Positions 3-37,942 are shown, counted from the stretch's first letter. The stretch is DNA of 38,985 nucleotides from an uncultured Candidatus Peribacteria bacterium (GCA_964373225.1 CAYJTW010000003.1:1-38985), one strand, 5' to 3'. Translations and numbers: made by a program. Notes: generated by a model from the sequence alone, not told the origin.

Positions 3-3000
3 GCAAACTGCGACGTGAAGAGTTCGGTCACCGGTGTGCTCTCCTGCGGGACGGATGCGGGAACCACCTATGGCTTCGGCCAAGGACTCTCGATTAGCAG
101 CAGCATCGTCACGCTGAATTCGACGATCACGGGATCGCTCGTCCGCTTCACCACGCTCTCCGGTTCTACCGTCCGCGCCCGTGACTACCTCTCCTCCTCC
201 GGCGTCCTCGTCCTCAAGAAGTACGCCGGTTCCTCTACGGGGAACATCCTCATCGTGGACACCAGCGGTCTCGTCTACGATGCCACCTACAAGCGGGTGG
301 GGATCAAGACGACGACTCCCAAAACCCAACTGGAAGTGCAGGGGACGATGTCGGGTAATGCCCTCTACGTCGCCCGCGCGTTCTCCGGCGCCGGACTCAC
401 CGGTTGTTGGGGCACCGCAAATAAGCTGGTGTGGAGCGGTTCCACATCGCGATTCGCCTGTGCCGCCGATCAGGGTGGCGGAGGCATAACTGTCAAAGTG
501 AAGACGGCGGATGAGACCGTGAATAACTCCTCGACATTGCAGGATGACGATCATCTCAGTTTCGCCATCGGCGCGAGTGAAAACTGGGCATACCTCATCG
601 ATTTTGTTCTCAACCAGGCGAGTGGCACCCCGGGATTCAAAGCGGCAGTGACTGCGCCGGCAAGCGCTGCATGCATAGCATCACTGTACCAGGCAGGTGG
701 AACTTCTACGACAACGTCCAGTACCTGCGGCGCCGATCTTGTCCACAGTATGCTATTCTCCGGAGATTTCACGGATCGTATTTACGGATCGGTCCGCAAC
801 AGTACCAATGCCGGCACTGTGCAATTCCAGTGGGCACAGAATCAGGCTAATGCCAGCGATACAAAGATTTACGCCGGCAGCTCGCTTCTGGCATTCAAGA
901 CCGTCGGCTCCGACCTTGCCGAAATCTACGCATCGCACGAACCCCTCATCCCGGGGACGGTCGTGACGCTCGATTCCACACTCCCTGCGGGAGTCCAGCG
1001 CAGCACTACTCCATACGATTCGCATCTCATGGGAGTCATTTCGACCAATCCGGGTCTTATGATGGGTGATATCCCATCCAAAGGTACCGTCGTCTTCCTT
1101 GCGCTCGCCGGGCGAGTGCCGGTCCTCGTCTCCACGGAGAACGGTTCGATCCAACCCGGTGATTACCTGACGTCGTCCTCACAGCCCGGCATCGCGATGC
1201 GCATGACGAAACCCGGTATGTCGATCGGACAGGCGATGGAAGGCTACAGTGAAACAGGGATCGGAGCGGTCATGACATTCATCAAGAATACCCACGTCGA
1301 CGGGTTTGATGAGACGGGTACGCTCCTCAGTGGCACGGGAGACATGCTCACCATACATGGGAATCTGACCGTCACCGGCGCGCTCCTTGTGCACGGCGGC
1401 GCACGCTTCGGTTCCGGCGTGACGATCGCATCGCGCGCGACATCATCCGGACAGAATCTCTTCATCGTGACGTCCAATGTCGGCGGTTCAGGAAACACGG
1501 TCTTCCGCGTGACGGCCGCCGGAGACGTGTCGGCCGATGGCGCCTTCACTGGCGGCGGGGCGGATTATGCGGAGTGGTTCACGACGACCGACACCAACCT
1601 CAAATTTGGCGAAGCGGTCTGCGTGGACATCACGCGTCCCAACAGCGTCAAGCGGTGCACGCGTTCGGGCGATCCCGATATCGTCGGTCTCGTCTCGAGC
1701 CGCGAGCAAGCGGCCTTCATCGGCAACAAATTCAGCGGCGCGGAAGATCTGCCGGTTCCCGGCACCGTTCTCGTTGGTCTCCTCGGGCAGCTCTCCGGCG
1801 ATATCGTCGTCGAATCCGATGCATCCAGCGCAAATTCTTCCTCGGGCTCGGGAATCATCCGCCCCGGCGATCCGCTCGCCGCCGGCACCATTCCCGGGAC
1901 GCTCCGGAAGGCGAACCTCGGCGAATCGACGGTCGGTGTTGCGCTCGAGGGACTCGAGGAGGGTCGTGCTATGCGCAAAGTCCTGATCTCGCGCAAGAAC
2001 CAGTCGCTGACGGTCGAAGCCGTCGAGCAGCACACGCTGGAATCCATCAAGGCGATGAAGATCGAGGATGAAGTGCAGTTGATGGTCCAGGACACGCTCA
2101 ACCGTTTGCAGGTGAGCCAGACCATCCGGGACGAAGTGGCGCGGCAGATGGTTGCCGTTGCGCCGCTCAGCGACCGCATTACCGCGCTCGAAGAGAAGAT
2201 CGCAGCCATGTCCGGAGCGTTAAAGGCACCGGAGAGCGAAAAGGGTCAAGAGGACGAGAATTCCATCACCGCGAAAGACGGTCGCTTCACCGGTGATCTC
2301 TACGTGGACGGTATCTTCCACATGCGAGATCTCTTCGTGCCCAACGGCATGCATATCGATGGTGCCCTGCAGACGGGATCCCTCAACGTGCAATCCGATG
2401 CGACGTTCAACGGAGCGCTCACACTCAACGGAACGCTCAACGTCACGAACGGAATCACCTTTGGCTCCGGCTCGATCCTTGAGGCCCACAGTTTGATCGT
2501 CCGCCATGCGCTCAAAGTCCTGGGCTCCATCACCATCGACGGCCTCGCGCAGTTCCTCGGCGACGTCGAGATCGCGGGGCAGTTGACACTCAGTAACCGC
2601 CAGGCGGGGTTCGCCGATATTCCTGCGCGCGGGACGGGCATCACTGTGTACTTCGATCGGCCGCTCACGCGTTTGCCGGTCATCACGGTCACTCCGGTCA
2701 GTCGGATCGGTGTGGAATGGTGGACCGAGCCGGCGACGATGACAGGCTTCCGAATCACGGTTGCCGAACCGCTCGTTGGGCCGGTGCGCTTCGGCTGGAC
2801 GGCCATCGCCGTGGACGGCGCTCACGCCGCTGCGGATACATCACTCAAGATTCCGTTCCTCCCCGTTGATGACGCCTCGTCTTCATCTGGATCGCTGGCC
2901 CTGAGCCCCTCGACCATGCTCGGGATAAACTCCACCGAAGGGTCCGTGTCCTCAGATTCATCGTCGCAGCCAACTATAGCGCCTTCGTCCGATTCATCCT

Positions 3001-3449
3001 CCAGCGCACCCATAACGTTGATACCGTTCCCGGTAGATTCCACAGACGTTCCGATCAGTACGAACGATGCATGGAACGGGTGCATCCGCGGCAATGTCCT
3101 GATCCGCGGCGACGGTCAGCCGGTCAACTGCTGGCGCTACCGCGATGGCTACGTGTGGGAGCATCCGGATCTTCCTATTTCGTTCACATACAACACGTCC
3201 GTCTCTCCCGCTATTCTGATCATTCCTGATGGATATGTGATCACGAAAGAGGGGACCGACGTGCCTCCTTCGTCTTCCAGTGCGTCATCGGAAAGTTCGT
3301 CGTCAGAGTCCGCAGAAAGTTCCGCATCGAGCGTGAGCAGTGAATCCAGTGCAGCATCGGCGAGTTCTTCCCGTGAAAGCAACGAAGCCCCCCCTCCGCC
3401 ACCGGCGCCGGATCCGGTCCCTCCAGCCCCCCCGGCAGATGGTCAATAA
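3..3449 (+). CDS. Giant extracellular tail-fibre-like / adhesin-like protein (5' partial, continues upstream of the window)
   Basis: The frame is open from base 3, with no stop before the GTG at 15. Motifs seen: VGIKTTTPKTQLEVQG (tail-fibre type); two modules starting GSDLAEIY (aa ~298) and GGADYAEWF (aa ~515), each followed by ...PGD.L......PG......G.A.EG. From memory these resemble the peptidase G2 / intramolecular-chaperone autoproteolytic domain of phage appendage proteins. Also a heptad coiled coil (aa ~665-735), G/N/T-rich beta-helix-like repeats, and Ser-rich and Pro-rich (PPPPPAPDPVPPAPP) C-terminal tracts. Confidence 0.8.
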   Translation, partial: ANCDVKSSVTGVLSCGTDAGTTYGFGQGLSISSSIVTLNSTITGSLVRFTTLSGSTVRARDYLSSSGVLVLKKYAGSSTGNILIVDTSGLVYDATYKRVGIKTTTPKTQLEVQGTMSGNALYVARAFSGAGLTGCWGTANKLVWSGSTSRFACAADQGGGGITVKVKTADETVNNSSTLQDDDHLSFAIGASENWAYLIDFVLNQASGTPGFKAAVTAPASAACIASLYQAGGTSTTTSSTCGADLVHSMLFSGDFTDRIYGSVRNSTNAGTVQFQWAQNQANASDTKIYAGSSLLAFKTVGSDLAEIYASHEPLIPGTVVTLDSTLPAGVQRSTTPYDSHLMGVISTNPGLMMGDIPSKGTVVFLALAGRVPVLVSTENGSIQPGDYLTSSSQPGIAMRMTKPGMSIGQAMEGYSETGIGAVMTFIKNTHVDGFDETGTLLSGTGDMLTIHGNLTVTGALLVHGGARFGSGVTIASRATSSGQNLFIVTSNVGGSGNTVFRVTAAGDVSADGAFTGGGADYAEWFTTTDTNLKFGEAVCVDITRPNSVKRCTRSGDPDIVGLVSSREQAAFIGNKFSGAEDLPVPGTVLVGLLGQLSGDIVVESDASSANSSSGSGIIRPGDPLAAGTIPGTLRKANLGESTVGVALEGLEEGRAMRKVLISRKNQSLTVEAVEQHTLESIKAMKIEDEVQLMVQDTLNRLQVSQTIRDEVARQMVAVAPLSDRITALEEKIAAMSGALKAPESEKGQEDENSITAKDGRFTGDLYVDGIFHMRDLFVPNGMHIDGALQTGSLNVQSDATFNGALTLNGTLNVTNGITFGSGSILEAHSLIVRHALKVLGSITIDGLAQFLGDVEIAGQLTLSNRQAGFADIPARGTGITVYFDRPLTRLPVITVTPVSRIGVEWWTEPATMTGFRITVAEPLVGPVRFGWTAIAVDGAHAAADTSLKIPFLPVDDASSSSGSLALSPSTMLGINSTEGSVSSDSSSQPTIAPSSDSSSSAPITLIPFPVDSTDVPISTNDAWNGCIRGNVLIRGDGQPVNCWRYRDGYVWEHPDLPISFTYNTSVSPAILIIPDGYVITKEGTDVPPSSSSASSESSSSESAESSASSVSSESSAASASSSRESNEAPPPPPAPDPVPPAPPADGQ

Positions 3450-3863: not shown

Positions 3864-4283
3864 TCAATAGTCAAACAGTTCGTCTTCCGAGAAAAACCGG
3901 TGCACTTCTTTTTCGGCGGTTTCGGGACTGTCACTGGCATGCGCGACGTTGACCATCTGGTCCACGCCGAACTGTGCGCGCAGCGTCCCGGGTGCGGCCT
4001 TGCGGCTGTCGGTGACGCCGAGCATATCGCGCATTTTTGCCACGATGTCTTTGCCTTCCAGCACGAGCGCGATCACCGGGATCGCACTCATGAACTTTTC
4101 GACCTCGTGGTAAAAAGGTTTGTCGGCGATGTGTGCGTAGTGCTCACGCAGCAGTTCCGGGTGCAGGCGGATCATTTTGCAGCCGCGGATGCGGAAACCG
4201 GCGCTCTCGAACCGCGCGATGACTTTTCCCGTAAACCCTTTGTCGACGGCGTCGGGCTTGAGGAGGATGAGGGTGCGTTGCAT
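3864..4283 (-). CDS. ndk: Nucleoside diphosphate kinase
   Basis: 139 aa. RTLILLKPDAV, GTLRAQFG and NVAHASDS (catalytic His) are classic NDK motifs over the full length. Confidence 0.95.
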   Translation of the reverse strand: MQRTLILLKPDAVDKGFTGKVIARFESAGFRIRGCKMIRLHPELLREHYAHIADKPFYHEVEKFMSAIPVIALVLEGKDIVAKMRDMLGVTDSRKAAPGTLRAQFGVDQMVNVAHASDSPETAEKEVHRFFSEDELFDY

Positions 4284-4305
4284 GGCGTGAGTGTATCATA
4301 ATCGC

Positions 4306-5067
4306 ATGAAGGGAGTACTCATCTGTGGTGGCTCCGGAACAAGACTTCGTCCACTGACGGAGATCACCAATAAAAGTCTGCTTCCGGTCTATGACCGGCC
4401 GCTGATCGAATATCCGCTCGGCAAACTCGTCGATGCGGGCATCACCGATATCGTTGTGATTTCCGGCAACGAGCACATCGACCAGATGGCGTCGTATCTG
4501 GGGAGCGGCGGACGGTTTGGATGCAAGTTCACGTACAGAGTGCAGGACAAGCCCCAGGGAATCGCGCAGGCACTCGGTATGGCGGAGGAATTCGCCGAAG
4601 GCCACAGCGTCTGCGCGATTCTCGGCGACAATATCTATTTCGACGATCTCTCGCCCGCGATCACATCGTTCAAGAAAGGGGGCCACGTGTTCCTCAAAGA
4701 GGTTCCCGATGCGGAGAGATTTGGAGTAGCGTCCCTCGCTACGCCCCGCACCCTTCTGCGGAAAGGTGCGAGGGCTACTCGGGATGACAATCGCGTTCAG
4801 GTTGAATCAATTGAAGAGAAACCCAAGAAGCCCAAGAGCAATTTCGCCGTCACGGGATGCTACGTCTACGATCACCGGTGCTTCGAGATCATCAGGAATC
4901 TGAAGCCCTCCGCGCGCGGGGAGTTCGAAATCACCGATGTCAGCCGCTGGTATCTGGAGCACGGCGAACTGACCGCGAGCGTGCTCAAAGACGAATGGAT
5001 TGATGCGGGGACGTTCGAGAGTCTCTTCAAAGCCGCGCAGTTGGTGCGGGAAAAGAAATCAGTATAA
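4306..5067 (+). CDS. Sugar-1-phosphate nucleotidyltransferase, short RmlA-like (glucose-1-phosphate thymidylyltransferase family)
   Basis: MKGVLICGGSGTRLRPLT (G-x-G-T-R-L signature), LGDNI, EEKPKKPKSNFAVTGCYVY. The ATG at 4306 is preferred over the GTG at 4291. Sugar and nucleotide specificity are inferred only from the neighbouring dTDP-sugar genes. Confidence 0.85.
   Translation: MKGVLICGGSGTRLRPLTEITNKSLLPVYDRPLIEYPLGKLVDAGITDIVVISGNEHIDQMASYLGSGGRFGCKFTYRVQDKPQGIAQALGMAEEFAEGHSVCAILGDNIYFDDLSPAITSFKKGGHVFLKEVPDAERFGVASLATPRTLLRKGARATRDDNRVQVESIEEKPKKPKSNFAVTGCYVYDHRCFEIIRNLKPSARGEFEITDVSRWYLEHGELTASVLKDEWIDAGTFESLFKAAQLVREKKSV
4724..4780. repeat. 57-nt bulged palindrome lying in-frame inside the RmlA-like CDS
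   Basis: GAGTAGC-GTC-CCTCGC (4724-4739) pairs with GCGAGGGCTACTC (4768-4780), giving 13 bp with a 3-nt bulge. An inner CCGCA/TGCGG stem is also present. Translated as GVASLATPRTLLRKGARATRD. Confidence 0.7.
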
Positions 5068-6150
5068 CGCCGCATACCGCTCTGCAATCCCGTCCCAGTC
5101 AAATTTCCGCGCATGCTCCACCGCCGCATCGGCCAGTTGCGTGCGGAATTTTTCGTCTTCGAGAAACATCCCCAGCACTCCGGCGGTCAGTTCCGGATTA
5201 TCGGGTTCTGTCAGCAGTCCCGTGACGCCGTCATGGACGACTTCGGGGATTCCTCCAATCTCCGTGCCGAGCACCGCGCAGCCGGCCGCTTGTGCTTCGA
5301 TGAAGACATTGCCCAGCGCTTCGGACCGCGAGAGCGCGCAGAAGATTTCGGCTTCGGCGTATTCTTGATACACAGATTGTCCGGTAAGAGCTCCGCAGAA
5401 CGTCACATGGGGTACGTTTCCATATTTCCTGCGTAAGTCGCCAAAAAGAGATCCGCTTCCGACAATATGAAGGGTTGCTGACGGATGCTGGTCATGAACG
5501 GAAACAAATGCTGCCAAGAGAGTATCCACACCTTTCATCTTCTCCAATCTTCCGACGAAGAGAATTCTCCCGGGGACTTTCTTCACCTCGCCGCACACTT
5601 TCCGGATCTCATCGTATGGAATGCCGTTCGGGATCACGATCGCATCCCGTCGTCCGAGTTTTGCTGCCTGATCTGCCAGTACTTTGCTGATGGCGGTAAT
5701 CACGTCCGGCGTTCTCATGATGTGATGGCGCAAAAAGTTCCGGTTCGTCGTCTGCAGCGTCAAAATCTGCTTCGCGTGAGGAACGACCAGGGTGCACATG
5801 TGGAGCGCGGCCCCGGCGAAGGTTTCGAGCACGGCATGGAGCACATCAGGCTTAAGCTTCCGCGCCGCGAACGGCGCGAGGAAGGGGTAGAGCCATTTAT
5901 CGAACGGAATGCCGAAGCCGACACGGATCACCGGCACCCCCCGGCCCACCTCACCCCCCGGCCCCCTCTCCGTGCCGCACGGAGAGGGGGAGAGGACATC
6001 CCGACGTGGAAGATCTCCCCGTAATTTTGCGGTGATGATCGTGATATCGAAGCGATCGCAGAGTCTCAGCGCCACTTCTTCGGCACATGCCTCCGCGCCG
6101 CTGCGAAACGGCGTGAGGAAGGCCGAGAAGATGACGATGCGACGGTTCAA
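5059..6150 (-). CDS. Glycosyltransferase family 4 (GT-B, glycosyl transferases group 1)
   Basis: 363 aa. C-terminal domain motifs LFVGRLEKMKGVD, SRSEALGNVFIEAQAAGCAVLGTEIGGIPEVV...G. The only in-frame start is TTG at 6150. Confidence 0.9.
   Translation of the reverse strand: MNRRIVIFSAFLTPFRSGAEACAEEVALRLCDRFDITIITAKLRGDLPRRDVLSPSPCGTERGPGGEVGRGVPVIRVGFGIPFDKWLYPFLAPFAARKLKPDVLHAVLETFAGAALHMCTLVVPHAKQILTLQTTNRNFLRHHIMRTPDVITAISKVLADQAAKLGRRDAIVIPNGIPYDEIRKVCGEVKKVPGRILFVGRLEKMKGVDTLLAAFVSVHDQHPSATLHIVGSGSLFGDLRRKYGNVPHVTFCGALTGQSVYQEYAEAEIFCALSRSEALGNVFIEAQAAGCAVLGTEIGGIPEVVHDGVTGLLTEPDNPELTAGVLGMFLEDEKFRTQLADAAVEHARKFDWDGIAERYAALY
5935..5990. repeat. In-CDS direct repeats plus a perfect hairpin
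   Basis: CACCCCCCGGCCC occurs at 5935-5947 and 5952-5964. A perfect 13-bp stem CCCCCTCTCCGTG / CACGGAGAGGGGG with a 3-nt loop lies at 5962-5990. On the minus strand it is translated as ...SPSPCGTERGPGGEVGRGVP... inside the GT4. Confidence 0.8.
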
Positions 6151-6180
6151 TGGAGAATGCAGAACGAAGAATGGAGAATT
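6149..6180. repeat. Left 32-nt terminal inverted repeat of the four-helix-bundle cassette
   Basis: AATGGAGAATGCAGAACGAAGAATGGAGAATT. Built from four tandem heptamers (GGAGAAT GCAGAAC GAAGAAT GGAGAAT). By hand alignment, 27/32 identical to the reverse complement of 6571-6602. Confidence 0.8.
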
Positions 6181-6535
6181 ATAAGAGATTCTTTTTTGCT
6201 GTATTTATGCTGGCAACCAATAGGGAAATGATCTCATTCAGTTCAAGCAATAACGATTGCGCTTCTTTCACGAATATTGGAGTTGTATCTCGGATAAGAC
6301 GGAGCCAAAAATCTGATTCGTTACCTTCTTTCAAAGCGATAGAAAGCTTTGAAATAAAATCGGGTTTGCTTTGTGCATGAGCTGCTTCTGCAACATTTGC
6401 CCCAATGCTGGTGCCTGATTTCAGTAATTGCTTGCTCAGAATGTATTCTTTTTCCTTCTGCATTTTTCTACAGAAATGAACAATCTTTATACTGAATGCA
6501 TAGGACTTGTCCCGAAGAGGATTTGGCTTCGCCAT
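6179..6535 (-). CDS. Four-helix-bundle protein (23S rRNA intervening-sequence protein / DGR Avd-like family)
   Basis: 118 aa. SYAFSIKIV.FC......EY.LSKQLLKSGTSIGANVAEA......DFISKLSIALKE..ES.FWL.L is the typical signature of this family. Confidence 0.85.
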   Translation of the reverse strand: MAKPNPLRDKSYAFSIKIVHFCRKMQKEKEYILSKQLLKSGTSIGANVAEAAHAQSKPDFISKLSIALKEGNESDFWLRLIRDTTPIFVKEAQSLLLELNEIISLLVASINTAKKNLL

Positions 6536-6570
6536 AGCTTATTACTGTCGAATATTCCCTATCAAAAGTC

Positions 6571-6602
6571 AATTCTCCGTTCTTCATTCTCCGTTCTCCG
6601 TT
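6571..6602. repeat. Right 32-nt terminal inverted repeat of the four-helix-bundle cassette
   Basis: AATTCTCCGTTCTTCATTCTCCGTTCTCCGTT, with heptamer periodicity. It overlaps the last codons (..ITENGE) and the stop codon of the GT4 gene 6584..7729. Confidence 0.8.
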
Positions 6603-7729
6603 ATCTTGAATAATTTCAAATATTTCTCACCCACAACGTCCCAGCTGAATCTCTCGTCAATTCTCCTTCTCGCTGCCTCACCCATCATCCTCCGCTTCGC
6701 GGGATCTTCGATCAATCGCCGCAGATGCGCCGCCAGAGCTTCACGATCACCGGCGGGGAACAGGAATCCCGAGACGCCGTTCTGGATCAAAAACGCATTG
6801 CCGCCAACATCAGACGCAACGCACGCGCACCCGCTCGCCATCGCTTCCATCAGCGCGTTGCTCAGCCCTTCGCTGTGGCTGGGGAGAACGAAGATATCGG
6901 TCTTTGCGAGGATCTCGGGAATATCGGAACGAAGGCCGGTGAACGTCACCTGATGCTCGTACTGCTTCACGAGCGGATGTTCCTCCTTATACCAGCCGAC
7001 GACCTGTATGGTGATGTCAGGGAAAGTATTTTTGAGCGGCACGGCGGCGGCCAGAAAGTCGTCGACGCCCTTTACCGATTCAAGTCTGCCAACGTATGTG
7101 ATAGTGACGGGTTTCGGGTTTCGGGTTTCGGGTTCTGTACTCGCAACCCATAACCCGTAACCCGAAACGTCTATCCCCGTCGGTATCACTTCCGATTTTT
7201 TCCATACACCCATCCGCTTCAGGAGTTTTTCCGGTTGTGGATGATAGAAGACGATGCGCTCCGCGCAGAGCATGACCGCCCACCCGAGCGTCCACGCGTA
7301 GATCGCTGCGGCGGTCTTCGGAATCCACCCGCGCGGCCACCACGTGATGCCGACGAGCGTGTCGGTCAGCAGGATCGGGCGGTACCCGCGCAGCCGCAGC
7401 GCGATCACGGAGAACGAACTCCAGAAGAGGATTTTATTGCAGACAATCAGGTCGGGACGTTCATCGCGGATGATGCGGCGCACGAATCCTGAAAATCCCA
7501 ACGCGATGCCATAGTTCCACGGATCGGGCAGATAGAAATCTTTCTTCCGATACATCGTGAGAGAATCGGATAGAACATCCTTGGACTCTTTGGAATCCTT
7601 TTTCTCGCCCATGCAGGCGACGACCACGCGATACCCGAGCCGCTGCCACAGCTCAGCCAGTTTCACCGTGCTGACCATCCAGCGATGGGGTTCTTTCCAG
7701 TAGGGGCTGATGAGGAGGATGGTCGACAT
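6584..7729 (-). CDS. Glycosyltransferase family 4 (GT-B)
   Basis: 381 aa. TYVGRLESVKGVD, LPSHSEGLSNALMEAMASGCACVASDVGGNAFLIQNGVSGFL (E-x7-E region). ATG at 7729. Confidence 0.9.
   Translation of the reverse strand: MSTILLISPYWKEPHRWMVSTVKLAELWQRLGYRVVVACMGEKKDSKESKDVLSDSLTMYRKKDFYLPDPWNYGIALGFSGFVRRIIRDERPDLIVCNKILFWSSFSVIALRLRGYRPILLTDTLVGITWWPRGWIPKTAAAIYAWTLGWAVMLCAERIVFYHPQPEKLLKRMGVWKKSEVIPTGIDVSGYGLWVASTEPETRNPKPVTITYVGRLESVKGVDDFLAAAVPLKNTFPDITIQVVGWYKEEHPLVKQYEHQVTFTGLRSDIPEILAKTDIFVLPSHSEGLSNALMEAMASGCACVASDVGGNAFLIQNGVSGFLFPAGDREALAAHLRRLIEDPAKRRMMGEAARRRIDERFSWDVVGEKYLKLFKITENGE
7106..7171. repeat. 66-nt hairpin with heptamer-repeat arms, in-frame inside the GT4 CDS
   Basis: The left arm is GAC(GGGTTTC)x3GGGTT (7106-7134). 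The right arm is AACCCATAACCCGTAACCCGAAACGTC (7145-7171), whose reverse complement is GACGTTTCGGGTTACGGGTTATGGGTT. The loop is 10 nt. Exactly 22 codons, translated as DVSGYGLWVASTEPETRNPKPV. Confidence 0.85.
7578..7606. repeat. In-CDS copy of the 9-mer-array element found at 8293-8329
   Basis: TCCTTGGACTCTTTGGAATC (7578-7597) is 19/20 identical to 8293-8312, and both are followed by TTTTTCTC. Translated on the minus strand as EKKDSKESKD. Confidence 0.75.
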
Positions 7730-7735
7730 GAAAAG

Positions 7736-7798
7736 GAGGCAAGAGAGGCAAGGGAGGCAGAAGAGGCAAGAGAGGCAAGGGAGTGAAAGGAGGCAAAG
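7736..7798. repeat. Seven tandem 9-mers (GAGGCAAGR consensus) in an intergenic spacer
   Basis: GAGGCAAGA GAGGCAAGG GAGGCAGAA GAGGCAAGA GAGGCAAGG GAGTGAAAG GAGGCAAAG. They fill most of the gap between the DUF2304 stop (7807) and the GT4 start (7729). Confidence 0.85.
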
Positions 7799-7806
7799 GA
7801 ATGAGT

Positions 7807-8193
7807 TTACTCCTTTGTCTCCTTTTCTTCTTTTTCAAGCCCCGCTTCCCGCAGCGCCAACTCTCTTACGATCCTGGCATGCCGCTGTTCGAGCTCCTCC
7901 AGGCGGATGATCATGTAGAAGACGATGAAGAAGAGGATGCCGAGGAAAGTGAAGATCACGGCGTTCTCGCGGTTGGCAATGCCCGTGACGGTCGAGAGGT
8001 AGGTGAGGAACGGCGGGAACATCGCGATCGCCGCGATCGCCCCCCAGAAGATTGTCCAAAAACACGCTTCCCACACCGTCTTCTTCTGTCGCATCACCAG
8101 GTTCCACGCGTACACGATCGCGACAATCGCGATCAGTGGAGCGACGATTTGGTAGGGGGTAAGCGTCATAGGAACGTGAGAGGTAGTGTACAT
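7807..8193 (-). CDS. DUF2304-like small membrane protein (usual partner of GtrB/DPM1-like GT2 enzymes)
   Basis: Three predicted TM helices followed by a charged C-terminal helix (EELEQRHARIVRELALRE). It sits immediately downstream of a GT2 gene, as is typical for DUF2304. The start may instead be the ATG at 8169. Confidence 0.7.
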   Translation of the reverse strand: MYTTSHVPMTLTPYQIVAPLIAIVAIVYAWNLVMRQKKTVWEACFWTIFWGAIAAIAMFPPFLTYLSTVTGIANRENAVIFTFLGILFFIVFYMIIRLEELEQRHARIVRELALREAGLEKEEKETKE

Positions 8194-8200
8194 TTCGCGC

Positions 8201-8324
8201 AGAGGATTCCAAGGAGTCCAAAGATTCCGAGGACCAGTTGGCGAGGGTGCAAGTGAAGCGGGGGAAGGTCACGATTCTCCCATTCCGTCTGGTCCTTGGA
8301 CTCCTTGGAATCTTCGGACTCTTT
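8201..8324. repeat. Large inverted repeat whose arms are 9-mer arrays
   Basis: The left arm is 8201-8237 (..GATTCCAAG GAGTCCAAA GATTCCGAG GACCAG). The right arm is 8289-8324 (CTGGTC CTTGGACTC CTTGGAATC TTCGGACTC). A spacer of about 50 nt separates them. The repeat lies between the DUF2304 start and the GT2 stop. Confidence 0.8.
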
Positions 8325-8334
8325 TTCTCAATAT

Positions 8335-9003
8335 TTAGCGTAGGAAAGATCTTAGGAGGATCTTCATTGCAGTTTTGACTCCATTCCCGAACGATTGCCC
8401 CTTCGCAAGCGTGTACTCGGAGTAGATCACCTTGGTCGGCACCTGCGCGATCCGCCACTTGTGCTGGCAGGCCTCGCGGACGATTTCGGTGCAGAATTCA
8501 AACCCCCGCATGCGCAGATCAATCTGCGCCAGTGCCCGCGGACCGATCACTTTGTATCCCGACTGGCTGTCTTGGACCCACATGCCGGTCGCGAGCCACG
8601 TCACGATGTTGCCGATGCCATTGAAGACACGACGAATGAGCGGGATACGGTTGCGGTGAGCGAAGCGGTTGCTGAAGACGATATCGGCCGTGTCGTCTTT
8701 GACCGGTCGCAGAAGCCGGGGAATATCGGAAGGATCATGTTGCTCGTCGGCATCAAGAGTGACGACGGTGGTTGCGCCCATGCGGCGCGCCGCTTCGATC
8801 CCCGTCATCGTTGCCGCCCCCGCGCCGCCGTTTTCCGCATGACGGATCACCGTCGCCCCCGCGTGCCTGGCCACCTCCGCGGTTGCATCCGTCGATCCGT
8901 CATCGACGACGATCACCGCGTCCACAAATCCTTTGGCGGCCGCAACAACATTGCCGACGCGCGTTGCTTCGTTGTATGCGGGGATGATGGCAACGATAGT
9001 CAT
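8335..9003 (-). CDS. GT2 glycosyltransferase, polyprenyl-phosphate sugar synthase-like (GtrB/CsbB/DPM1 type)
   Basis: 222 aa. VAIIPAYNE, VVDDGSTD, LDADEQHDP.DIP.LL. The ATGA start/stop overlap with the upstream membrane-protein gene at 9000-9003 indicates translational coupling. Confidence 0.85.
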   Translation of the reverse strand: MTIVAIIPAYNEATRVGNVVAAAKGFVDAVIVVDDGSTDATAEVARHAGATVIRHAENGGAGAATMTGIEAARRMGATTVVTLDADEQHDPSDIPRLLRPVKDDTADIVFSNRFAHRNRIPLIRRVFNGIGNIVTWLATGMWVQDSQSGYKVIGPRALAQIDLRMRGFEFCTEIVREACQHKWRIAQVPTKVIYSEYTLAKGQSFGNGVKTAMKILLRSFLR

Positions 9004-11786
9004 GGAATCAGAATAAAGGCAATTCCCGCGTTGGTATCGCTCACCACCACCTGCAGTCCCGACGCGGGATTATTCACGAAATCGACGAAGGCGTTGACCT
9101 TCTTATGCAGCGATCCCCGGTCGTCGCGTTCGATCGTCGCGGTGTTCGTGTCGAAGACGATGGCATTGAACTTGAGGGCTTTGAGGCGTTTGACCGTGAG
9201 CGCAGCGTTCTTTTCCTGATAGAGGCAATTGAACACGTCGAGCTGGTGGTCGTTGAGGCCGATGATCTCGAGATTGCGCGGAATAAAGTACGGGATGAAG
9301 GTCCCGACCCGGTACAGGAATGGCCGGTCGGGCATGGTCTCGTGCCGATCCACCGCCGTCGCCGAGATCGCGTCGTAGTAGGGGATGGTGATTTCACGCA
9401 GAGCATCTGCCGAGACTTTGCCCATGGAGTACTCAAAAATATTGCGCTGCTGTTCAAACTGCCAGAAGCGCAGGTTGAAGGCGATGAGCAGCGAGAAGCC
9501 GATCAGAACGGCGGCCGCGATGCGGCTGGGCTTGTCCGGAGCTTTCTGCACCAGTGCCTCGAGTCCGATCACGAGGCCGAGCAGTATCCCGATGCCGTAC
9601 CACGGGATGCCGTTGCCCAAAAAGATCCATTCCAGAATCATGAGCGCGGTGATGCACGTGAGGCCGCGCAGCCAGCGTCCCTGGGCGGTCCAAAAATACG
9701 GCAGCAGCAGGAGCAGCGGAAAGAGCAGGAGCGCCGGGATGGTCGTCACGTAATACCCGGTCGCGTCGATGTTCATGACTGTCCGCCACGGGAGTGTCAG
9801 GTAGTGCGACCAGCCTTTCCCGAATCCCCAGTAGCGGTCGAGTTCCTCAAAGACGCCGGTCGCCTTGCACGCGCCGACGGTCTTATCCGTCGCGAGTTCT
9901 CCCGTGAGCCCGTCGACGTCGATTTTCGGGGAGAGATGATTGATGGGGGAGCCGAGCGGCTCCGGAAACCATTTTCCGTTTTCCATCGCCGTGTGCTCGG
10001 CCCAGGGCAGCACCGCGAGCGCGAGACCGAATCCGAATGCGCCGATGAGTTTGATGACGGGGAGAAAGGCCGGACGATGGTGCCAGAGAGACCAGACGAT
10101 GCATGCGAGGCCGGCGACAAAGAAGAGAGCGGTGACCGTCGATCCGAGCCACGACGGCGGAATATCGCCGATGATACGCATTGCGATCACCTGCACCGAT
10201 ACCGCACCCCGCCACAGATAGGCGAAGCACAGAAGGAAGCCCATGCCGAGAAAAGCTCTCCAATCGAGAAGCATGCCGATGAGAAGAGCTGTGAGCGGGA
10301 GTACCACCATGATGGCGGTCACCTTGGTCGCGAATGCAAGACCCAGCGCAATGCCCGCGATGATCAGTAGAGACGCATGATTATGCGTCTTTACATCATG
10401 CGTCTTTACATCCGCCGACGCATCATCAGTCGCCGGCAACACCGCCATCATCGTCGCGAGTATCGCGATCACCCCAAAGAAGAAGATCGCGTTGTCGATT
10501 TTCATGTCCGCGTACGAGAAGTGCCCGACGAGCGGGAGAGAGTAGTAGAGGAGTGCGCCAAGAACGCCGCTCTTGTTTCCAAGGAATGTCCGCGCAAACG
10601 CAAGAATGCCCAGGACCGCGAGGAGGCCCGCGGACCAGTTGACCATCATCGAGGCCGTCGCGCCCACCGGATTGTCGTACCCGAACAGAAGGAACCCGAG
10701 AGCCGTCAGGTACGACCAGTCGAAGGGCGCCATCGGCGCGATGAACCGGCCGTAGCTCACGAGCAGGCGCGGGCGGTTCAAATAACTGCCCAAGTCGTCC
10801 CAACCGATCGGAAACGGCCGGACGACCTGCAGAAAGTTGAGCGCGAGGTAGCTCAGCAGCAGGAAGGAGAGAAGCAGCGGCAGATCGAGCCACCGGTACT
10901 CGCGTTCCCAGCGTTCCCACAGGAATTTTTCGATCCAGTAGCGCGTATGCGCGTATCCCACGACGGGAATGATCAGCGCCAGCAACCATCCCGCCGTACT
11001 CACGAAAATGCCGGCGACGGCCAGCGTCCAGAGGATGGCGATCCCGACACCCGCTCCGATACCGACACTGAACACCGTTTCGAGCAGCAGGTTCGGCGGA
11101 CGATACCGCAGCCACCCCAGTGCCATGCGCCCCAGGATCAACATTTCCCCCAGGAGCATCAACACGAAGAACACCTGCGGCACGACGCGGCCGATGAACG
11201 CCTTCTCCATGCACCACGTCTTCAGCATGTAGATTTTGGCCCCCACCTGGGATTCCCCCTGCAGATCCAGGCATCCCTGACCGAGCAGAAGCTGGTAATC
11301 CCGCTGCAGTGTCTGCAACGCGTTCTCGGCGACGTTGTATGTGTCCTTTGTCGGTTCGGGATAGACGCGCACCGATCTGTCATTCACAGAACCGAAGCCG
11401 ATGACGGTGGCAAAAAGCCAGACGCTTGCGACAAAGAGCAGAAGGATTTTCCACGGAGTCCAGACGATCAGTACGGATTTCCGGTTGAGGCCCAGAGCCT
11501 GCCAGCCGGCGAAGCAGGCCCATGCGAGCGCGCAGAGAATGCCGTACCACAAAAACGGCGCAGCCCGTCCGAATGTATTCAAAACGAAAGGGAAGAACGT
11601 CGAGATGCCGCGGCACACGAATGATGCGGTTCCGCATGAGGCGGTCACGGACTTCATCGCTTCATCGGTCATCATCGCCGCTCCGTGATAGGGGACGCCG
11701 AGGTAAACGATGAGAGTGTAGGTACCCCAGAGGAGAAGCAGGGCGAAAAGGGAGACGCTGAGGTACTGAATTGTGCGGGAGTTCAT
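9000..11786 (-). CDS. Very large polytopic membrane protein with a C-terminal soluble domain; putative GT-C-type (YfhO/PMT-like) glycosyltransferase
   Basis: 928 aa, with many hydrophobic segments over aa 1-700 and a hydrophilic tail of about 200 aa. A PIGWDDLGSYL loop motif loosely resembles acidic GT-C loop motifs. It is coupled to the GT2 gene. The functional call is an inference. Confidence 0.5.
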   Translation of the reverse strand: MNSRTIQYLSVSLFALLLLWGTYTLIVYLGVPYHGAAMMTDEAMKSVTASCGTASFVCRGISTFFPFVLNTFGRAAPFLWYGILCALAWACFAGWQALGLNRKSVLIVWTPWKILLLFVASVWLFATVIGFGSVNDRSVRVYPEPTKDTYNVAENALQTLQRDYQLLLGQGCLDLQGESQVGAKIYMLKTWCMEKAFIGRVVPQVFFVLMLLGEMLILGRMALGWLRYRPPNLLLETVFSVGIGAGVGIAILWTLAVAGIFVSTAGWLLALIIPVVGYAHTRYWIEKFLWERWEREYRWLDLPLLLSFLLLSYLALNFLQVVRPFPIGWDDLGSYLNRPRLLVSYGRFIAPMAPFDWSYLTALGFLLFGYDNPVGATASMMVNWSAGLLAVLGILAFARTFLGNKSGVLGALLYYSLPLVGHFSYADMKIDNAIFFFGVIAILATMMAVLPATDDASADVKTHDVKTHNHASLLIIAGIALGLAFATKVTAIMVVLPLTALLIGMLLDWRAFLGMGFLLCFAYLWRGAVSVQVIAMRIIGDIPPSWLGSTVTALFFVAGLACIVWSLWHHRPAFLPVIKLIGAFGFGLALAVLPWAEHTAMENGKWFPEPLGSPINHLSPKIDVDGLTGELATDKTVGACKATGVFEELDRYWGFGKGWSHYLTLPWRTVMNIDATGYYVTTIPALLLFPLLLLLPYFWTAQGRWLRGLTCITALMILEWIFLGNGIPWYGIGILLGLVIGLEALVQKAPDKPSRIAAAVLIGFSLLIAFNLRFWQFEQQRNIFEYSMGKVSADALREITIPYYDAISATAVDRHETMPDRPFLYRVGTFIPYFIPRNLEIIGLNDHQLDVFNCLYQEKNAALTVKRLKALKFNAIVFDTNTATIERDDRGSLHKKVNAFVDFVNNPASGLQVVVSDTNAGIAFILIP
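10371..10412. repeat. 8-bp inverted repeat plus a perfect 15-bp tandem duplication inside the CDS
   Basis: AGACGCAT-GATT-ATGCGTCT (10371-10390). ATGCGTCTTTACATC occurs at 10383-10397 and again at 10398-10412. Translated on the minus strand as ..DVKTHDVKTH.. Confidence 0.85.
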
Positions 11787-11824
11787 CAGGAAAAGTGTAC
11801 CTCATTTAGGAGATGCCAAACATG

Positions 11825-11891
11825 CTCGTTCACTCGTTCATTCGTTAACTCGTGTTTATGACGTACGAATTAACCAGTTAACGAATTAACG
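11825..11891. repeat. Inverted repeat with octamer-repeat arms in a divergent intergenic region (possible operator)
   Basis: The left arm is CTCGTTCA CTCGTTCA TTCGTTAA CTCGTG. The reverse complement of the right arm is CGTTAA TTCGTTAA CTGGTTAA TTCGTA. The perfect 11-bp core is ATTCGTTAACT (11840-11850) / AGTTAACGAAT (11876-11886). Confidence 0.7.
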
Positions 11892-11923: not shown

Positions 11924-13168
11924 ATGCCCCTGGACCTGAATCTCATTCGTCGGCAGTTTCCCATTCTGCACCAGCAGATGAATGGAAACCCCCTCATCTA
12001 TCTCGATTCCGCCGCAACCGCGCAGAAGCCGCAGGCCGTCCTTGATCGCATGAAAAAGTTCTACGAAGAAGAGAATGCCAACGTCCACCGCGGCATGCAT
12101 GTGCTCGCGGAGCGGGCGACGGTGGCGTACGAAGGCGCGCGCGGGACCGTCCAAAAATTTCTCCATGCGCAGCGCCCCGAAGAAATCATTTTCACGAAGA
12201 GCTGCACCGAGGCGATCAACGTGGTTGTGAAATCCTGGGGCAAGAACAATCTCCGCAAAGGAGACCGCGTCGTCCTCTCCGTGCTCGAACACCACAGCAA
12301 CATCGTTCCGTGGCTGCAGCTCAAAGACGAGATCGGTATTGAAATTCGCTGGGTGGATATCGACGACCACGGGCAATTCCGGTTTGATCACTTCGTCGAC
12401 ATCATGGATGACGGCGGTGTGTGCGCGGTCGCCGTCACTGCGCAGAGCAATGTGCTGGGCACACGACCCCCCCTCAAAGACATCATTGTCAAAGCGCACG
12501 ATCATGGCGCGGTCGTTCTCGTCGATGCCGCGCAGTCCGCGGCTCATCATCCAACCGACGTCCAGGATCTCGACTGCGACTTTCTCGCCTTCAGCGGCCA
12601 TAAACTCTACGGTCCCACCGGCATCGGCGTGCTGTACGGCAAGCAGTCACTTCTCCAGTCCATGCCTCCGTTCCTCGGCGGCGGCATGATGATTCAGGAA
12701 GTCCACCAGGACCGGTTCACGTCGGCCGACCTGCCGCAGAAATTTGAAGCCGGGACTCCCCCGGTCGTGGAAGCGGTGGGACTAGCCGCGGCAATTAATT
12801 GGCTCAAGCACTATTCCTGGAAAGACATCGAGGCGCATGAGAATCATCTTCTTACGCTCGCTCATGACGTCCTGAGATCCATTCCCGGTTTGAAATTTTT
12901 GGGCTCAGACCCCAACCCCAACCCTAGCAATTCCGGTTGCCTCAGCTTCACCATCAACGGCATTCACCCCCACGACCTCACCGAAATTCTCGGACATCAG
13001 GGGATCTGCCTGCGCGCGGGGCATCACTGCACGCAGCCACTGCACCGGCGACTCGGTGTAGAGGCGTCCACACGGTTGAGTGTGGGGATCTACAATACAG
13101 AGGAGGAGATCCACATACTCTTTCATGCATTCCCAACAGCTGTTCAGCGACTTTCACGGCATGACTAA
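11924..13168 (+). CDS. sufS: Cysteine desulfurase, SufS type (class V aminotransferase)
   Basis: IRRQFPIL..........YLDSAATAQKP, HRGMH, FSGHKLYGPTGIGVLYG (PLP Lys), RAGHHCTQPL (catalytic Cys loop), YNTEEEI. The ATG at 11924 is preferred over the GTG at 11891. Confidence 0.92.
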   Translation: MPLDLNLIRRQFPILHQQMNGNPLIYLDSAATAQKPQAVLDRMKKFYEEENANVHRGMHVLAERATVAYEGARGTVQKFLHAQRPEEIIFTKSCTEAINVVVKSWGKNNLRKGDRVVLSVLEHHSNIVPWLQLKDEIGIEIRWVDIDDHGQFRFDHFVDIMDDGGVCAVAVTAQSNVLGTRPPLKDIIVKAHDHGAVVLVDAAQSAAHHPTDVQDLDCDFLAFSGHKLYGPTGIGVLYGKQSLLQSMPPFLGGGMMIQEVHQDRFTSADLPQKFEAGTPPVVEAVGLAAAINWLKHYSWKDIEAHENHLLTLAHDVLRSIPGLKFLGSDPNPNPSNSGCLSFTINGIHPHDLTEILGHQGICLRAGHHCTQPLHRRLGVEASTRLSVGIYNTEEEIHILFHAFPTAVQRLSRHD

Positions 13169-14106
13169 CAAATATCGATCACGGCGATCGACATATTGTC
13201 CGGTTTCGGCGCCGAGCGATATCCATCGGAATATTGTCTGGCCTTTGCGCGCTCTGGAGTGGCGTCACGAATGCTCCTGAAATCCTTCATGCGGGGAATG
13301 ACCAGTTCTTCCGTCCGGACGATGATGTTCCTTGCATCACGCCCCGTGATTGCCTGGAGGAATTCCTTCGTTGTGAGATTGTCGAATACTCCGTCGGACG
13401 CAACGATCACACGGTATCCCGGCTGAAGAGGGATGGACGGCGAGCGAGTTGGAACATACGTGCCACCGATGCTGTTTGTGACTACGGCCTTGCCGTGATG
13501 ATACAGTCCTTCGTCCTCGGTAATGGCGCCTGCCCGTACCAGGCTACTCGCAAGATCTTCGTCTGCTGATTCCCGCACGAGCGTTCCCTGTGTATCGAGC
13601 ACCAGAACATGAACATCGCCGGCCTGTGTGAACTCGAGGAGCTTTGTGCCACTCGTCGCGTCCAGCGTGATACGAACATGAGTAAAACAAGCCCCCGAAC
13701 GAGAGTAGGCCGGTATGGATGCGGTCGTCTGCCGGGTAGCAGCATCAATATCATCGAACAGCAGCCCTTTGGCGAGCACCGAAGCAATTATAGCGCCGTC
13801 TGATCCATATCCATCGATCCCCGTCACTGCTGATCCGTGCACATTCATCACAATACAATCCTGATTTTCTGGATAATGTCCGTGCGCTTTATGACAGGCG
13901 GCGGTTACCCGATCGCCCGTAGCGAGTGTTTCGGTGATGATACTCGCTGCCAACGAAGCGGATGATTCCCCGTCCAAAACCACACCAAGGAGAGTGCGCA
14001 CTTCCTGTCGCTGCGCATTGAGTGTGACATGATACAATCGTTCTCCCCCCTGTGGAAGATTCTGCATGTCGAACTTTTCACCGGCAGGGAGAGTGCCATT
14101 TCGCAT
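13165..14106 (-). CDS. PP2C-fold Ser/Thr phosphatase-like protein (divergent)
   Basis: 313 aa. VVLDGESSASLA (position of the DGMGG motif), AGDVHVLV (position of GDSR), VIVASDGVFDNLT, and a C-terminal PDNMSIAVIDI (DN.T-type ending). The metal-binding Asp positions appear retained; the glycine-rich motif is degenerate. Confidence 0.6.
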   Translation of the reverse strand: MRNGTLPAGEKFDMQNLPQGGERLYHVTLNAQRQEVRTLLGVVLDGESSASLAASIITETLATGDRVTAACHKAHGHYPENQDCIVMNVHGSAVTGIDGYGSDGAIIASVLAKGLLFDDIDAATRQTTASIPAYSRSGACFTHVRITLDATSGTKLLEFTQAGDVHVLVLDTQGTLVRESADEDLASSLVRAGAITEDEGLYHHGKAVVTNSIGGTYVPTRSPSIPLQPGYRVIVASDGVFDNLTTKEFLQAITGRDARNIIVRTEELVIPRMKDFRSIRDATPERAKARQYSDGYRSAPKPDNMSIAVIDIC

Positions 14107-14558: not shown

Positions 14559-14560
14559 AA

Positions 14561-37404: not shown

Positions 37405-37418
37405 GGTCATGGCTCGAG

Positions 37419-37440
37419 GCAAAGCGCCGCGGCGCTTTGC
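37419..37440 (+). terminator. GC-rich palindrome after rpmB (possible terminator, no U-tract)
   Basis: GCAAAGCGCC-GC-GGCGCTTTGC, a 22-nt perfect palindrome starting 15 nt after the rpmB stop codon. Confidence 0.3.
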
Positions 37441-37445
37441 ACCTC

Positions 37446-37542
37446 GCCATGACACCATCATCACCCCGGAAATGTCATGGTGAGGTGCGCGCCTCGCATC
37501 ATGCCATGACACCATCATCACCCCGGAAATGTCATGGTGAGG
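37446..37542. repeat. Two tandem copies (57-nt period) of a 40-nt hairpin-forming unit
   Basis: GCCATGACACCATCATCACCCCGGAAATGTCATGGTGAGG occurs at 37446-37485 and identically at 37503-37542. Each contains CCATGACA...TGTCATGG (8-bp stem, extendable to 12 of 13 in copy 1). The repeat lies between convergent genes. Confidence 0.85.
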
Positions 37543-37576
37543 AGTGCGCTGTTCGAGCGCGCCTCGAACCATGACA

Positions 37577-37942
37577 TCACGCCTTCTTGTTGAACGCGGC
37601 GAACAGCGCCCACACGCCGACGACGAGGTGCAGGACGTTATCGACCGGATTTTCGAGGTTCGTGACGCCGTAGAAGTTCGGCGACGGATTGCCCCGGACC
37701 ATGAAGCCGAGGACGCCGAAGGCGAGTGCGATGATGCCAACGAGCACCACAACCCACTTCTTCAGATCGCCGATCGCGAGGGGGGCGAGCACGAGAGCGA
37801 CAATGCCGAGTACAAGATGCGCCCAGTTTTCGGCGGCATCGAAGTTGAGAAGGTCGCCCGCCAGGTTGGGCGCAAGGAAGCCAATGACGCCGAGCAGAAC
37901 GAGGATGACGCCGCCGATCTGCAGGAACTGTTTAGGGTTCAT
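37577..37942 (-). CDS. Small four-TM membrane protein (DUF4383-like)
   Basis: 121 aa from the ATG at 37942 (MNPKQFLQIGGVILVLLGVIGF...). Motifs ENWAHLVLG and DNVLHLVVG repeat as in DUF4383. The ORF-track extension to 38425 is antisense to the GT-C gene and is rejected. Confidence 0.65.
   Translation of the reverse strand: MNPKQFLQIGGVILVLLGVIGFLAPNLAGDLLNFDAAENWAHLVLGIVALVLAPLAIGDLKKWVVVLVGIIALAFGVLGFMVRGNPSPNFYGVTNLENPVDNVLHLVVGVWALFAAFNKKA

Follow-up and report, generated by a model that had tools for sequence, protein, structure and literature searches.

Heptamer-armed cassettes and tandem-arm hairpins in a glycosylation operon of Candidatus Peribacteria

What has filled a bacterial glycosylation operon with hairpins whose arms are themselves short tandem repeats? 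The question is raised by a 38,985-nt stretch of DNA from an uncultured Candidatus Peribacteria bacterium (GCA_964373225.1, CAYJTW010000003.1:1-38985), the whole of which we call the window. It has a GC content of ~57%, and its genes have homologues that carry the name of Candidatus Peribacteria or Peregrinibacteria, within the Candidate Phyla Radiation (CPR). Domain and gene-order analysis of the window identified a glycosylation operon at 4.3-13.2 kb. An earlier reading of this DNA, made from the sequence alone (the sequence-only reading), had noted here a set of inverted repeats with tandem-repeat arms, and had proposed that they share one design of no described class, perhaps mobilised by a transposase encoded elsewhere. 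Our analysis makes it probable that the operon has been colonised by a single class of selfish elements, consisting of cassettes of the intervening-sequence (IVS) type together with gene-less derivatives or relatives. This class is defined by inverted arms of ~30 nt, in each of which 3-5 units of 7-9 nt follow one another in tandem. The window element is an S23p-type IVS cassette outside rRNA, accompanied in this CPR genome by putative derivatives resembling the short tandemly repeated repetitive (STRR) sequences of cyanobacteria.

A heptamer-armed cassette between two glycosyltransferase genes

The full-length form of the element is probably the cassette at 6149-6602, inserted between the glycosyltransferase genes GT4b (6584-7729) and GT4a (5059-6150), with its arms abutting the gene that it carries. 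No rRNA gene is present in the window. The cassette comprises the following parts:

6149..6602, minus strand: the IVS-type cassette (5' arm, short leader, four-helix-bundle open reading frame (ORF), 3' arm), 454 nt, 38.8% GC
6573..6602, minus strand: 5' arm, in sense AACGGAG AACGGAG AATGAAG AACGGAG AA (Tandem Repeats Finder period 7, 4.3 copies)
6179..6535, minus strand: 118-aa four-helix-bundle gene of the S23p family (23S rRNA intervening-sequence protein), 357 nt
6149..6179, minus strand: 3' arm, in sense ATTCTCC ATTCTTC GTTCTGC ATTCTCC ATT (Tandem Repeats Finder period 7, 4.4 copies)

The 118-aa product matches PF05635 (E = 1.7e-23) and TIGR02436 (E = 2.8e-28), with PDB 2rld as its nearest solved structure (E = 2.7e-27). 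All structures listed by the sequence-only reading were recovered. The two arrays at 6149 and 6573 do not form a compact hairpin; they bracket this 357-nt gene, which that reading had overlooked. The 5' arm also encodes a new GT4b C-terminus (..KITENGE*), and the 3' arm runs from the stop codon of the ORF to the TTG start of GT4a. The arms are complementary at 21/24 positions, and in a 473-nt transcript they pair as a terminal stem in both the minimum free energy and the centroid folds (z = -3.5).

For comparison, we used 83 Peribacteria loci (1.40 Mb, ~20 kb per genome; numbered L003, L005 and so on), across which the gene order SufS-PMT-GT2-DUF2304-GT4b-GT4a-NTP-NDK is kept. The closest relatives (L007, L009 and L010) lack the cassette, and the stop codon of their GT4b and the start codon of GT4a share an ATGA; this is the exact point at which the cassette lies in the window and L017. 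As the cassette is AT-rich and missing from the same junction in the closest relatives, we conclude that it was inserted. Together with L003 and L086, the window and L017 form a subfamily that has A[AG]TGAAN arms in common at two different sites, and in Peribacteria the syntenic operon has cassettes at six or more of its junctions. These positions and the comparison of filled and empty sites at GT4b/GT4a are evidence for mobility. This junction is a general insertion hot spot: two relatives carry unrelated ORFs of 158 and 180 aa without a Pfam match between GT4b and GT4a (L005 1969-2445 and L006 8854-9396).

Since the heptamer arms enclose a PF05635 gene, the design is tied to a class that has been described, namely the S23p IVSs of Coxiella burnetii, Leptospira, Brucella and Xanthomonas. 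The view that the structures fall outside any described class therefore holds only in part: such IVSs with tandem heptamers are on record, and it is the general link between gene and arms that goes unstated in the literature we found. The S23p IVSs and the window cassette have in common an ORF of PF05635, terminal inverted repeats that form a stem of ~28-31 bp around it, tandem heptamers in the 5' arm (4.3 copies in the window; 3-4 of GACAGAT in Coxiella) and a similar size (454 nt vs 428-444 nt in Coxiella). They also share a GC content below that of the host and a sporadic distribution with signs of horizontal transfer (PMC4990558). The C. burnetii 23S rRNA IVS encodes S23p and ends in a 28-bp stem, its GACAGAT heptamers lie upstream of the ORF in numbers that vary among strains, and its stem is cleaved internally by RNase III in vitro (PMC4990558). 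What sets the window cassette apart is its location, as the S23p IVSs sit in helix 9, 25 or 45 of 23S rRNA; RNase III excision, shown for the rRNA IVSs, may extend to the window cassette by analogy. A homopentameric toroid is reported for a Xanthomonas S23p homologue, according to the account in PMC4990558 (citing Lin 2006), and PDB entries 2rld and 2gsc contain 5 chains each.

Heptamer arms around PF05635 genes across phyla

We surveyed 76 metagenomic, 10 plasmid and 11 Peribacteria loci that carry such genes. The 11 Peribacteria genes come from the 83 loci described above, where 7 of the 8 inverted array pairs with arms at least 150 nt apart enclose a four-helix-bundle gene. Flanks complementary at 19/24 positions or more were found for 6/11 of these genes, as opposed to 5/403 control ORFs, and the few control ORFs with complementary flanks carry unrelated non-tandem repeats. 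In one locus (L044 3866-4462), a 198-aa ORF with weak helix-turn-helix and LAGLIDADG-like matches lies inside a 23/24 inverted repeat (GGAGCCGCCTTCGGGATTTGA); this may be an insertion of the homing-endonuclease type, unrelated to the heptamer arms.

On plasmids, heptamer arrays lie beside the gene at all 10 homologue loci (from Nostoc, Dolichospermum, Anabaena, Euhalothece, Pseudanabaena, Bernardetia, Chondrinema, Treponema and Chlorohelix), and at several the complementarity is 20/20; (CAATTCG)4.7 - gene - (TTGCGAA)4.7 is an example of perfectly complementary arms. The metagenome scan yielded 80 homologous loci with GC contents of 26-56%, 76 of which had enough flanking sequence. An array lies at most 200 nt from the gene in 74/76 of these and on both sides in 59/76, period 7 accounts for 156 of the 179 arrays, and the flanks are complementary at 16/20 positions or more in 86% of loci vs 3/90 controls. 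Bracketing by inverted heptamer arrays is near-universal in the sampled loci, across phyla. The arms, which abut the ORF, have a median length of 31 nt (interquartile range 27-33) and mostly hold 4-5 units.

Within a cassette, the two arms co-vary, since a match of at least 18/20 was reached by 65% of comparisons between a cassette's own arms and by 2.9% of those between arms from two cassettes. The arm units follow a loose consensus, ARTKRAN, which appears upstream on the sense strand (29 vs 2) and as its complement downstream (43 vs 8); arm polarity is fixed. In other phyla, four such cassettes lie inside operons: in the cas2/cas1 gap (L093, Anabaena cylindrica pANACY.01), upstream of cas1 (L096, Pseudanabaena), in an RND adaptor/permease gap (L094, Chondrinema) and in a DUF1156/Swt1-HEPN gap (L095, Chlorohelix). 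In the searchable literature, we found no paper stating a general link between PF05635 and inverted heptamer arrays outside rRNA, nor are the repeats mentioned in the genome paper on Peribacteria. The cross-phylum association of PF05635 genes with inverted heptamer arrays seems not to have been described before, and we see in it the main point of interest.

Gene-less arrays at operon junctions and in protein loops

The other tandem-arm structures of the window lie among the genes of the operon:

3864-4283, minus strand: NDK
4291-5067, plus strand: RmlA-like (thymidylyltransferase-like) nucleotidyltransferase, 258 aa
5059-6150, minus strand: GT4a glycosyltransferase
6179-6535, minus strand: 118-aa ORF, four-helix bundle
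6584-7729, minus strand: GT4b glycosyltransferase
7807-8193, minus strand: DUF2304
8335-9003, minus strand: GT2
9000-11786, minus strand: PMT_2-like membrane protein, 928 aa
11891-13168, plus strand: SufS

The structures themselves, none of which carries a gene, are:

7106..7171, minus strand: heptamer-armed hairpin, (TTTCGGG)n - 10 nt - (AACCCGA)n, in frame in the GT4b interdomain linker, aa 187-208
7570..7606, minus strand: single-arm copy of the 8293-8321 9-mer array, in the N-terminal hot spot of GT4b, aa 42-54 (EKKDSKESKDVLS)
7730..7834, minus strand: 9-mer array (GAGGCAAGA x ~7) with inverted partner, at the DUF2304/GT4b junction
8201..8324, minus strand: hairpin with 9-mer arms and a 68-nt loop, at the GT2/DUF2304 junction
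10367..10412, minus strand: 15-mer x2 with inverted partner, in a variable loop of the PMT_2-like protein (DVKTHDVKTH), aa 459-474
11825..11891, no strand assigned: octamer-armed hairpin, intergenic, between the divergent PMT-like and sufS genes

Tandem Repeats Finder placed 21 of its 30 rows for the window within 4.0-12.5 kb, among them heptamer arrays at 6149-6179, 6573-6602, 7108-7134 and 7145-7168, 9-mer arrays at 7732-7800, 8203-8233 and 8293-8321, octamer arrays at 11825-11853 and 11865-11891, and a 15-mer x2 at 10383-10412. An inverted-repeat search returned the arm pairs 7111-7134/7145-7168 (88%), 8202-8224/8293-8315 (91%), 11832-11853/11873-11894 (86%) and 10367-10381/10395-10409 (93%). 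The structure at 7730-7834 is of the same design and was missing from the earlier list. RNA folds of single window hairpins have z-scores of -2.2 to -5.7, including -36.9 kcal/mol (z = -5.65) for 7106-7171 and -53.6 kcal/mol (z = -4.24) for 8201-8324.

The recurrence of the design, which the sequence-only reading had proposed, is not a product of chance. Between 4001 and 12500, we counted 10 arrays (period 5-15) and 6 inverted array pairs, compared with a mean of 0.28 arrays and 0 pairs in 100 dinucleotide shuffles. Shuffles that preserve the coding content (synonymous-codon and codon-order) likewise gave fewer arrays than observed: GT4b has 3 (shuffled mean 0.5, max 2) and the PMT-like gene 5 (mean 1.4, max 3). 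Chance and base composition were ruled out by these three kinds of shuffle. Two assemblies from other sequencing runs match 6100-7947 and 5969-6887 at 99.9% identity without gaps. Because these other-run assemblies reproduce 5969-7947 in this way, the structures are not assembly artefacts, an explanation that is also ruled out by their recurrence in 83 loci of different species. We also considered that the hairpins might serve as intrinsic terminators or promoters, which we rejected, as scans of the window were at chance level (10 terminator-like sites vs 7.4 expected; 2 promoter-like sites vs 3.6 expected) and none of the sites coincided with a hairpin.

Across the 83 loci, we found 614 short-period arrays; counted by merged array, period 7 is the commonest (319), followed by periods 8 (96) and 9 (92). 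A hairpin partner that is complementary at 13/16 positions or more lies within 150 nt of 41% of arrays, against 1.5% in a positional null. According to approximate gene calls, 30% of arrays are intergenic (in 9% of the DNA), 18% lie at gene ends and 52% in ORFs, including the housekeeping gene sufS; 69% of the intergenic arrays are hairpin-paired. The process suspected by the sequence-only reading is lineage-wide: the same architecture recurs in the 83 loci, often at the same junctions and loops, with different units.

Arrays have been gained and lost at orthologous sites, both gene junctions and protein loops. At each operon junction, only ~10-46% of species carry one, for instance 37/80 at DUF2304/GT4b and 25/78 at GT2/DUF2304. 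Where arrays are missing, the genes are mostly close or overlapping, because the median spacers are 0-58 nt at 5/7 junctions. The first arm of 7730-7834 encodes the C-terminal tail of DUF2304 (EKEEKETKE*). At the PMT-like/sufS junction, homologous octamer units (ACGAATTA / TCGTTAAT) occur in L006 and L010, and L003 has another octamer. Period and unit of junction arrays are common to close relatives and different in distant ones. A period specific to each site, which we tried as proof of orthology, proved only partly true, given that period 7 is the commonest at most junctions once all loci are counted, with period 8 ahead at two.

Inside genes, the frame is preserved. The sequence-only reading had stated that four loci are translated without breaking it, and this is borne out for the RmlA-like, GT4a, GT4b and PMT-like genes. 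The 83 GT4b orthologues contain 85 arrays, of which 67 have period 7; they cluster at relative positions 0.11 and 0.5, and the former is the N-terminal hot spot, at which 23 orthologues have arrays. An alignment of 30 orthologues revealed three insertion hot spots with inserted peptides that are not conserved, and the linker varies from 15 to 41 aa, with a different unit, mostly a heptamer, in each species that has an array. This hypervariability between orthologues rules out the inserts as conserved functional peptides. None of the three outcomes that the sequence-only reading had named as refuting it came about: shuffles that keep the codons gave fewer arrays, the other-run assemblies match, and the inserts vary strongly from one orthologue to the next. 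The 15-mer insert at 10367-10412 is also present in the closest relative L007. Four GT4b orthologues (P0011, P0062, P0105 and P0113) carry a PSTSSGQA(L/R/N) insert after VVGWY (alignment columns ~347-362), which resembles the translation of another dispersed repeat element.

Within the ~20 kb sampled per genome, units also appear dispersed as families. In 5.1% of within-locus comparisons, the exact unit reappears at a distance of over 700 nt, vs 0.44% of comparisons between loci (11.6-fold). GGTCACT, for example, is found at five sites of L029, including the cassette arms and the GT4b linker, and TAGAATAC hairpins stand at two junctions of L007. Of period-7 arrays that do not lie beside a four-helix-bundle gene, 23% fit the cassette-arm consensus, vs 2.5% by chance (9-fold). 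The length of an array stays near 30 nt whatever its period, the median being 29 nt (periods 7 and 8) or 31.5 nt (period 9) and the 90th percentiles 34-41 nt; such a ceiling is not expected from free slippage.

Several described repeat systems resemble these arrays. The closest are the cyanobacterial STRR heptamers, reportedly described by Mazel et al. in 1990, and the TAACTGA repeats. Both also consist of few tandem heptamers, dispersed in genome-specific unit families as the Peribacteria arrays appear to be; period 7 predominates in Peribacteria too (319/614 arrays), and the STRR hosts Nostoc, Anabaena and Dolichospermum have plasmid four-helix-bundle genes flanked by such heptamer arrays. 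The Peribacteria arrays differ from them in their CPR host, in that ~41% are hairpin-paired and in that about half lie in frame in coding sequence. TAACTGA repeats of Beggiatoaceae, Cyanobacteria and Bacteroidetes are dispersed and mostly intergenic, some being at ORF ends or inside ORFs, and in MacGregor's account they are essentially direct and precede start codons, only one case being inverted, and PF05635 is not linked to them (PMC4679880).

The analogy with Rickettsia palindromic elements (RPEs), drawn by the sequence-only reading, is fair at the level of behaviour: in both cases, palindromes are translated at surface or linker positions of conserved proteins that stay intact. RPEs are families of conserved sequence of 100-150 nt, whereas the Peribacteria elements measure 60-130 nt and consist of tandem 7-9-nt units that vary by site and species. 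Repetitive extragenic palindromic (REP) sequences and bacterial interspersed mosaic elements (BIMEs), with their REP-associated tyrosine transposase (RAYT), and miniature inverted-repeat transposable elements (MITEs) are likewise short dispersed palindromes at operon junctions, with gene-carrying and gene-less forms. They lack tandem-array arms of variable sequence, and the gene enclosed here encodes a four-helix bundle without known catalytic activity. The single conserved palindrome expected of REP or MITE sequences is not what we see, as units differ among the six window loci and among species, and no target-site duplication was identified for the Peribacteria elements. In Borg elements, in-ORF repeat units are said to be divisible by three and to be direct repeats; in Peribacteria, by contrast, the leading period is 7 even within ORFs, and hairpin pairing is common among the arrays. 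The fast-evolving tandem repeats in Borg ORFs add low-complexity loops to proteins (PMC9879509).

Three further structures of the window are of other kinds:

4724..4780, plus strand: bulged palindrome in the RmlA-like gene, translated in frame, aa 145-164
5935..5990, minus strand: 17-mer x2 and perfect 14-bp GC-rich palindrome (CCCCCTCTCCGTGC/GCACGGAGAGGGGG; 5962-5990) in GT4a, aa 54-72
37406..37577, no strand assigned: ~22-nt units (GCGCGCCTCG..CCATGACAT) in alternating orientation with a 57-nt tandem duplication, BIME-like

The palindromes at 4724-4780 and 5962-5990 had been grouped with the tandem-arm hairpins; they are real, yet plain and of other families. That at 4724-4780 is bulged (RNA fold -32.3 kcal/mol, z = -3.1) and constitutes a 16-aa insertion missing from the solved RmlA structures to which we aligned it (PDB 3hl3 and 4ho0), with RmlA-like orthologues measuring 237-239 aa vs 258 in the window. 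That at 5962-5990 belongs to a dispersed GC-rich family of the form CCCCTCTCC-loop-GGAGAGGGG, often followed by GGGGTGAGG, of which 32 copies exist in the 1.4 Mb of Peribacteria loci, 27 inside ORFs. Copies such as L005 3082-3108 and L007 10569-10613 take positions within the same genes that vary by species. The proposed seventh related structure at 37446-37542 is part of the cluster at 37406-37577, which we excluded from the tandem-arm class, as it consists of alternating ~22-nt units without tandem short units and has no copy in any fetched locus. The structures at 4724, 5962 and 37406 are not tandem-arm hairpins, so that these genomes evidently host several kinds of palindromic insertion side by side.

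Elsewhere in the window, an Rfam scan matched one tRNA only and no known RNA family. A HepT-like RNase toxin gene (22159-22485, minus strand) overlaps that of an MNT-type nucleotidyltransferase antitoxin (22482-22787, minus strand) in a region of low GC (48.6%). A Bro-N domain protein (28162-29022) adjoins tRNA-Thr(GGT) at 29121-29195, and 26500-29200, where neighbouring ORFs have no Pfam match and AT skew is strong, may be a tRNA-integrated element. Long ORFs (493-1144 aa) without any Pfam match lie at 15-3449, 14561-16333, 16206-18038, 26506-27987 and 35534-37153. Among the relatives, L006 contains a giant ORF (12755-18857) with 402-nt and 48/96-nt tandem repeats, whose product exceeds 2800 aa in the locus and 4400 aa in a longer contig, where it has a Peptidase_S74 match.

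Origin of the elements and their significance

In the reading that we think probable, the gene-less forms at 7106-7171, 7730-7834, 8201-8324 and 11825-11891 and the single arm at 7570-7606 would be derivatives or relatives of the cassette design; that gene-less hairpins derive from cassettes is our inference. Insertions would be tolerated at gene junctions, often with the last codons of the upstream gene rewritten, and in surface loops or interdomain linkers, where selection would leave only frame-preserving copies. During turnover, the unit sequence would shift fast, with period, arm length and arm pairing kept. Once transcribed, the arms may form ~30-bp stems that are cut by RNase III, as the precedent of the rRNA IVSs suggests, and such cutting would free the four-helix-bundle mRNA and split the neighbouring cistrons.

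Several points weigh against a common element class, and some of them favour its main rival for many of the gene-less arrays, a local mutational process. According to this alternative, slippage and hairpin-templated strand switching create arrays in place, selection filters them for frame and position, and the cassette is an unrelated passenger with similar arms. We hold it to be possible, if doubtful. The cassette-arm consensus is not matched by ~77% of period-7 arrays, nor by any 9-mer array of the window, and many GT4b-linker arrays contain conserved local codons (Tyr-Gly, or Val-Thr) with units that differ among the carrier species, which suggests growth in place rather than import. That close relatives have period and unit in common and distant ones do not fits drift in place, and the number of heptamers varies among Coxiella strains. 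However, slippage alone gives no account of the dominance of period 7 or of the ~30-nt ceiling at periods 7, 8 and 9, and a local process leaves unexplained both the 11.6-fold surplus of identical units found far apart in a single genome and the 9-fold enrichment of the cassette-arm consensus in arrays away from cassettes; at some junctions, moreover, the genes of other species abut or overlap. Further points against a common element class are that we know of no mobility enzyme for it and of no catalytic activity of the four-helix-bundle protein, and that the link between cassettes and arrays was drawn from only ~20 kb per genome. A wobble test on 83 cassette stems also gave no RNA-specific signal (42 G:U-type mismatches, sense, vs 58 A:C-type, antisense-only; p = 0.13). 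We therefore dropped the notion that wobble pairs reveal selection at the RNA level; the pairing may be kept up in the DNA itself or on either strand.

Selected RNA or DNA signals offer another account, either as intercistronic processing or stability hairpins similar to the REP or BIME sequences of E. coli operons, or as heptamer contingency loci that switch glycosyltransferases. Heptanucleotide repeats are reported to serve as phase-variation switches in other bacteria, as in NeuO of E. coli K1, and the enrichment at junctions (30% of arrays in the 9% of DNA that is intergenic, 69% of these hairpin-paired), the constrained arm length and the co-variation of arms would all suit a signal. We nevertheless find this account improbable. 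At every junction, the arrays are missing from more than half of species; they are not terminator-like, with terminator and promoter scans at chance level; and about half lie in coding sequence, even in sufS. Phase variation in particular is not supported, since all 83 GT4b orthologues, as represented by consensus assemblies, are in a single frame with no switched-off allele among them, and arrays of 3-5 copies are short for efficient slippage. Mobilisation in trans of REP- or MITE-like elements, by a RAYT or an IS200/IS605-type tyrosine transposase elsewhere in the genome, was the mechanism offered by the sequence-only reading, and we regard it as very unlikely. The elements are indeed palindromic and dispersed, with genome-specific families, and a separate GC-rich palindrome family and the BIME-like cluster at 37406-37577 coexist with them. 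Yet no transposase domain was detected in the scanned window ORFs, the only gene recurrently enclosed by arms is PF05635, and units that differ from site to site are at odds with an enzyme that recognises one conserved hairpin. A search of the 1.4 Mb of Peribacteria loci for an IS200-like ORF was negative too, in what was a weak test, given the query used.

A bolder version of colonisation by one element class, which we put forward as speculation with low confidence, would make PF05635 genes and their heptamer arms the autonomous form of a widespread, unrecognised mobile element, and the dispersed arrays of STRR type, of Bacteroidota, of Peribacteria and of others its non-autonomous derivatives. 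The element would have no canonical transposase and could land in rRNA helices, operon junctions and, in frame, protein loops. A pentameric ring of the protein could bind the 4-5 heptamers of an arm, one per subunit, which would account for period 7 and the arm ceiling of ~31 nt.

Both the rRNA IVSs and the cyanobacterial heptamer repeats have been known since 1990, and to our knowledge their origin, mobility mechanism and function are not known. Our results suggest that they are two faces of one system. In the sampled subfamily of S23p genes (44-63% identical), inverted heptamer arms accompany almost every locus, across phyla and mostly outside rRNA. For the CPR, the findings mean that even in very small genomes numerous short structured insertions are tolerated, among them seven-base repeats that are translated within conserved enzymes. 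The inserts alter gene ends and create TTG starts, with consequent problems for annotation and alignment, and they explain a class of low-complexity inserts in metagenome-predicted proteins. In the surface-glycan enzymes of these bacteria, they are a source of loop variation.

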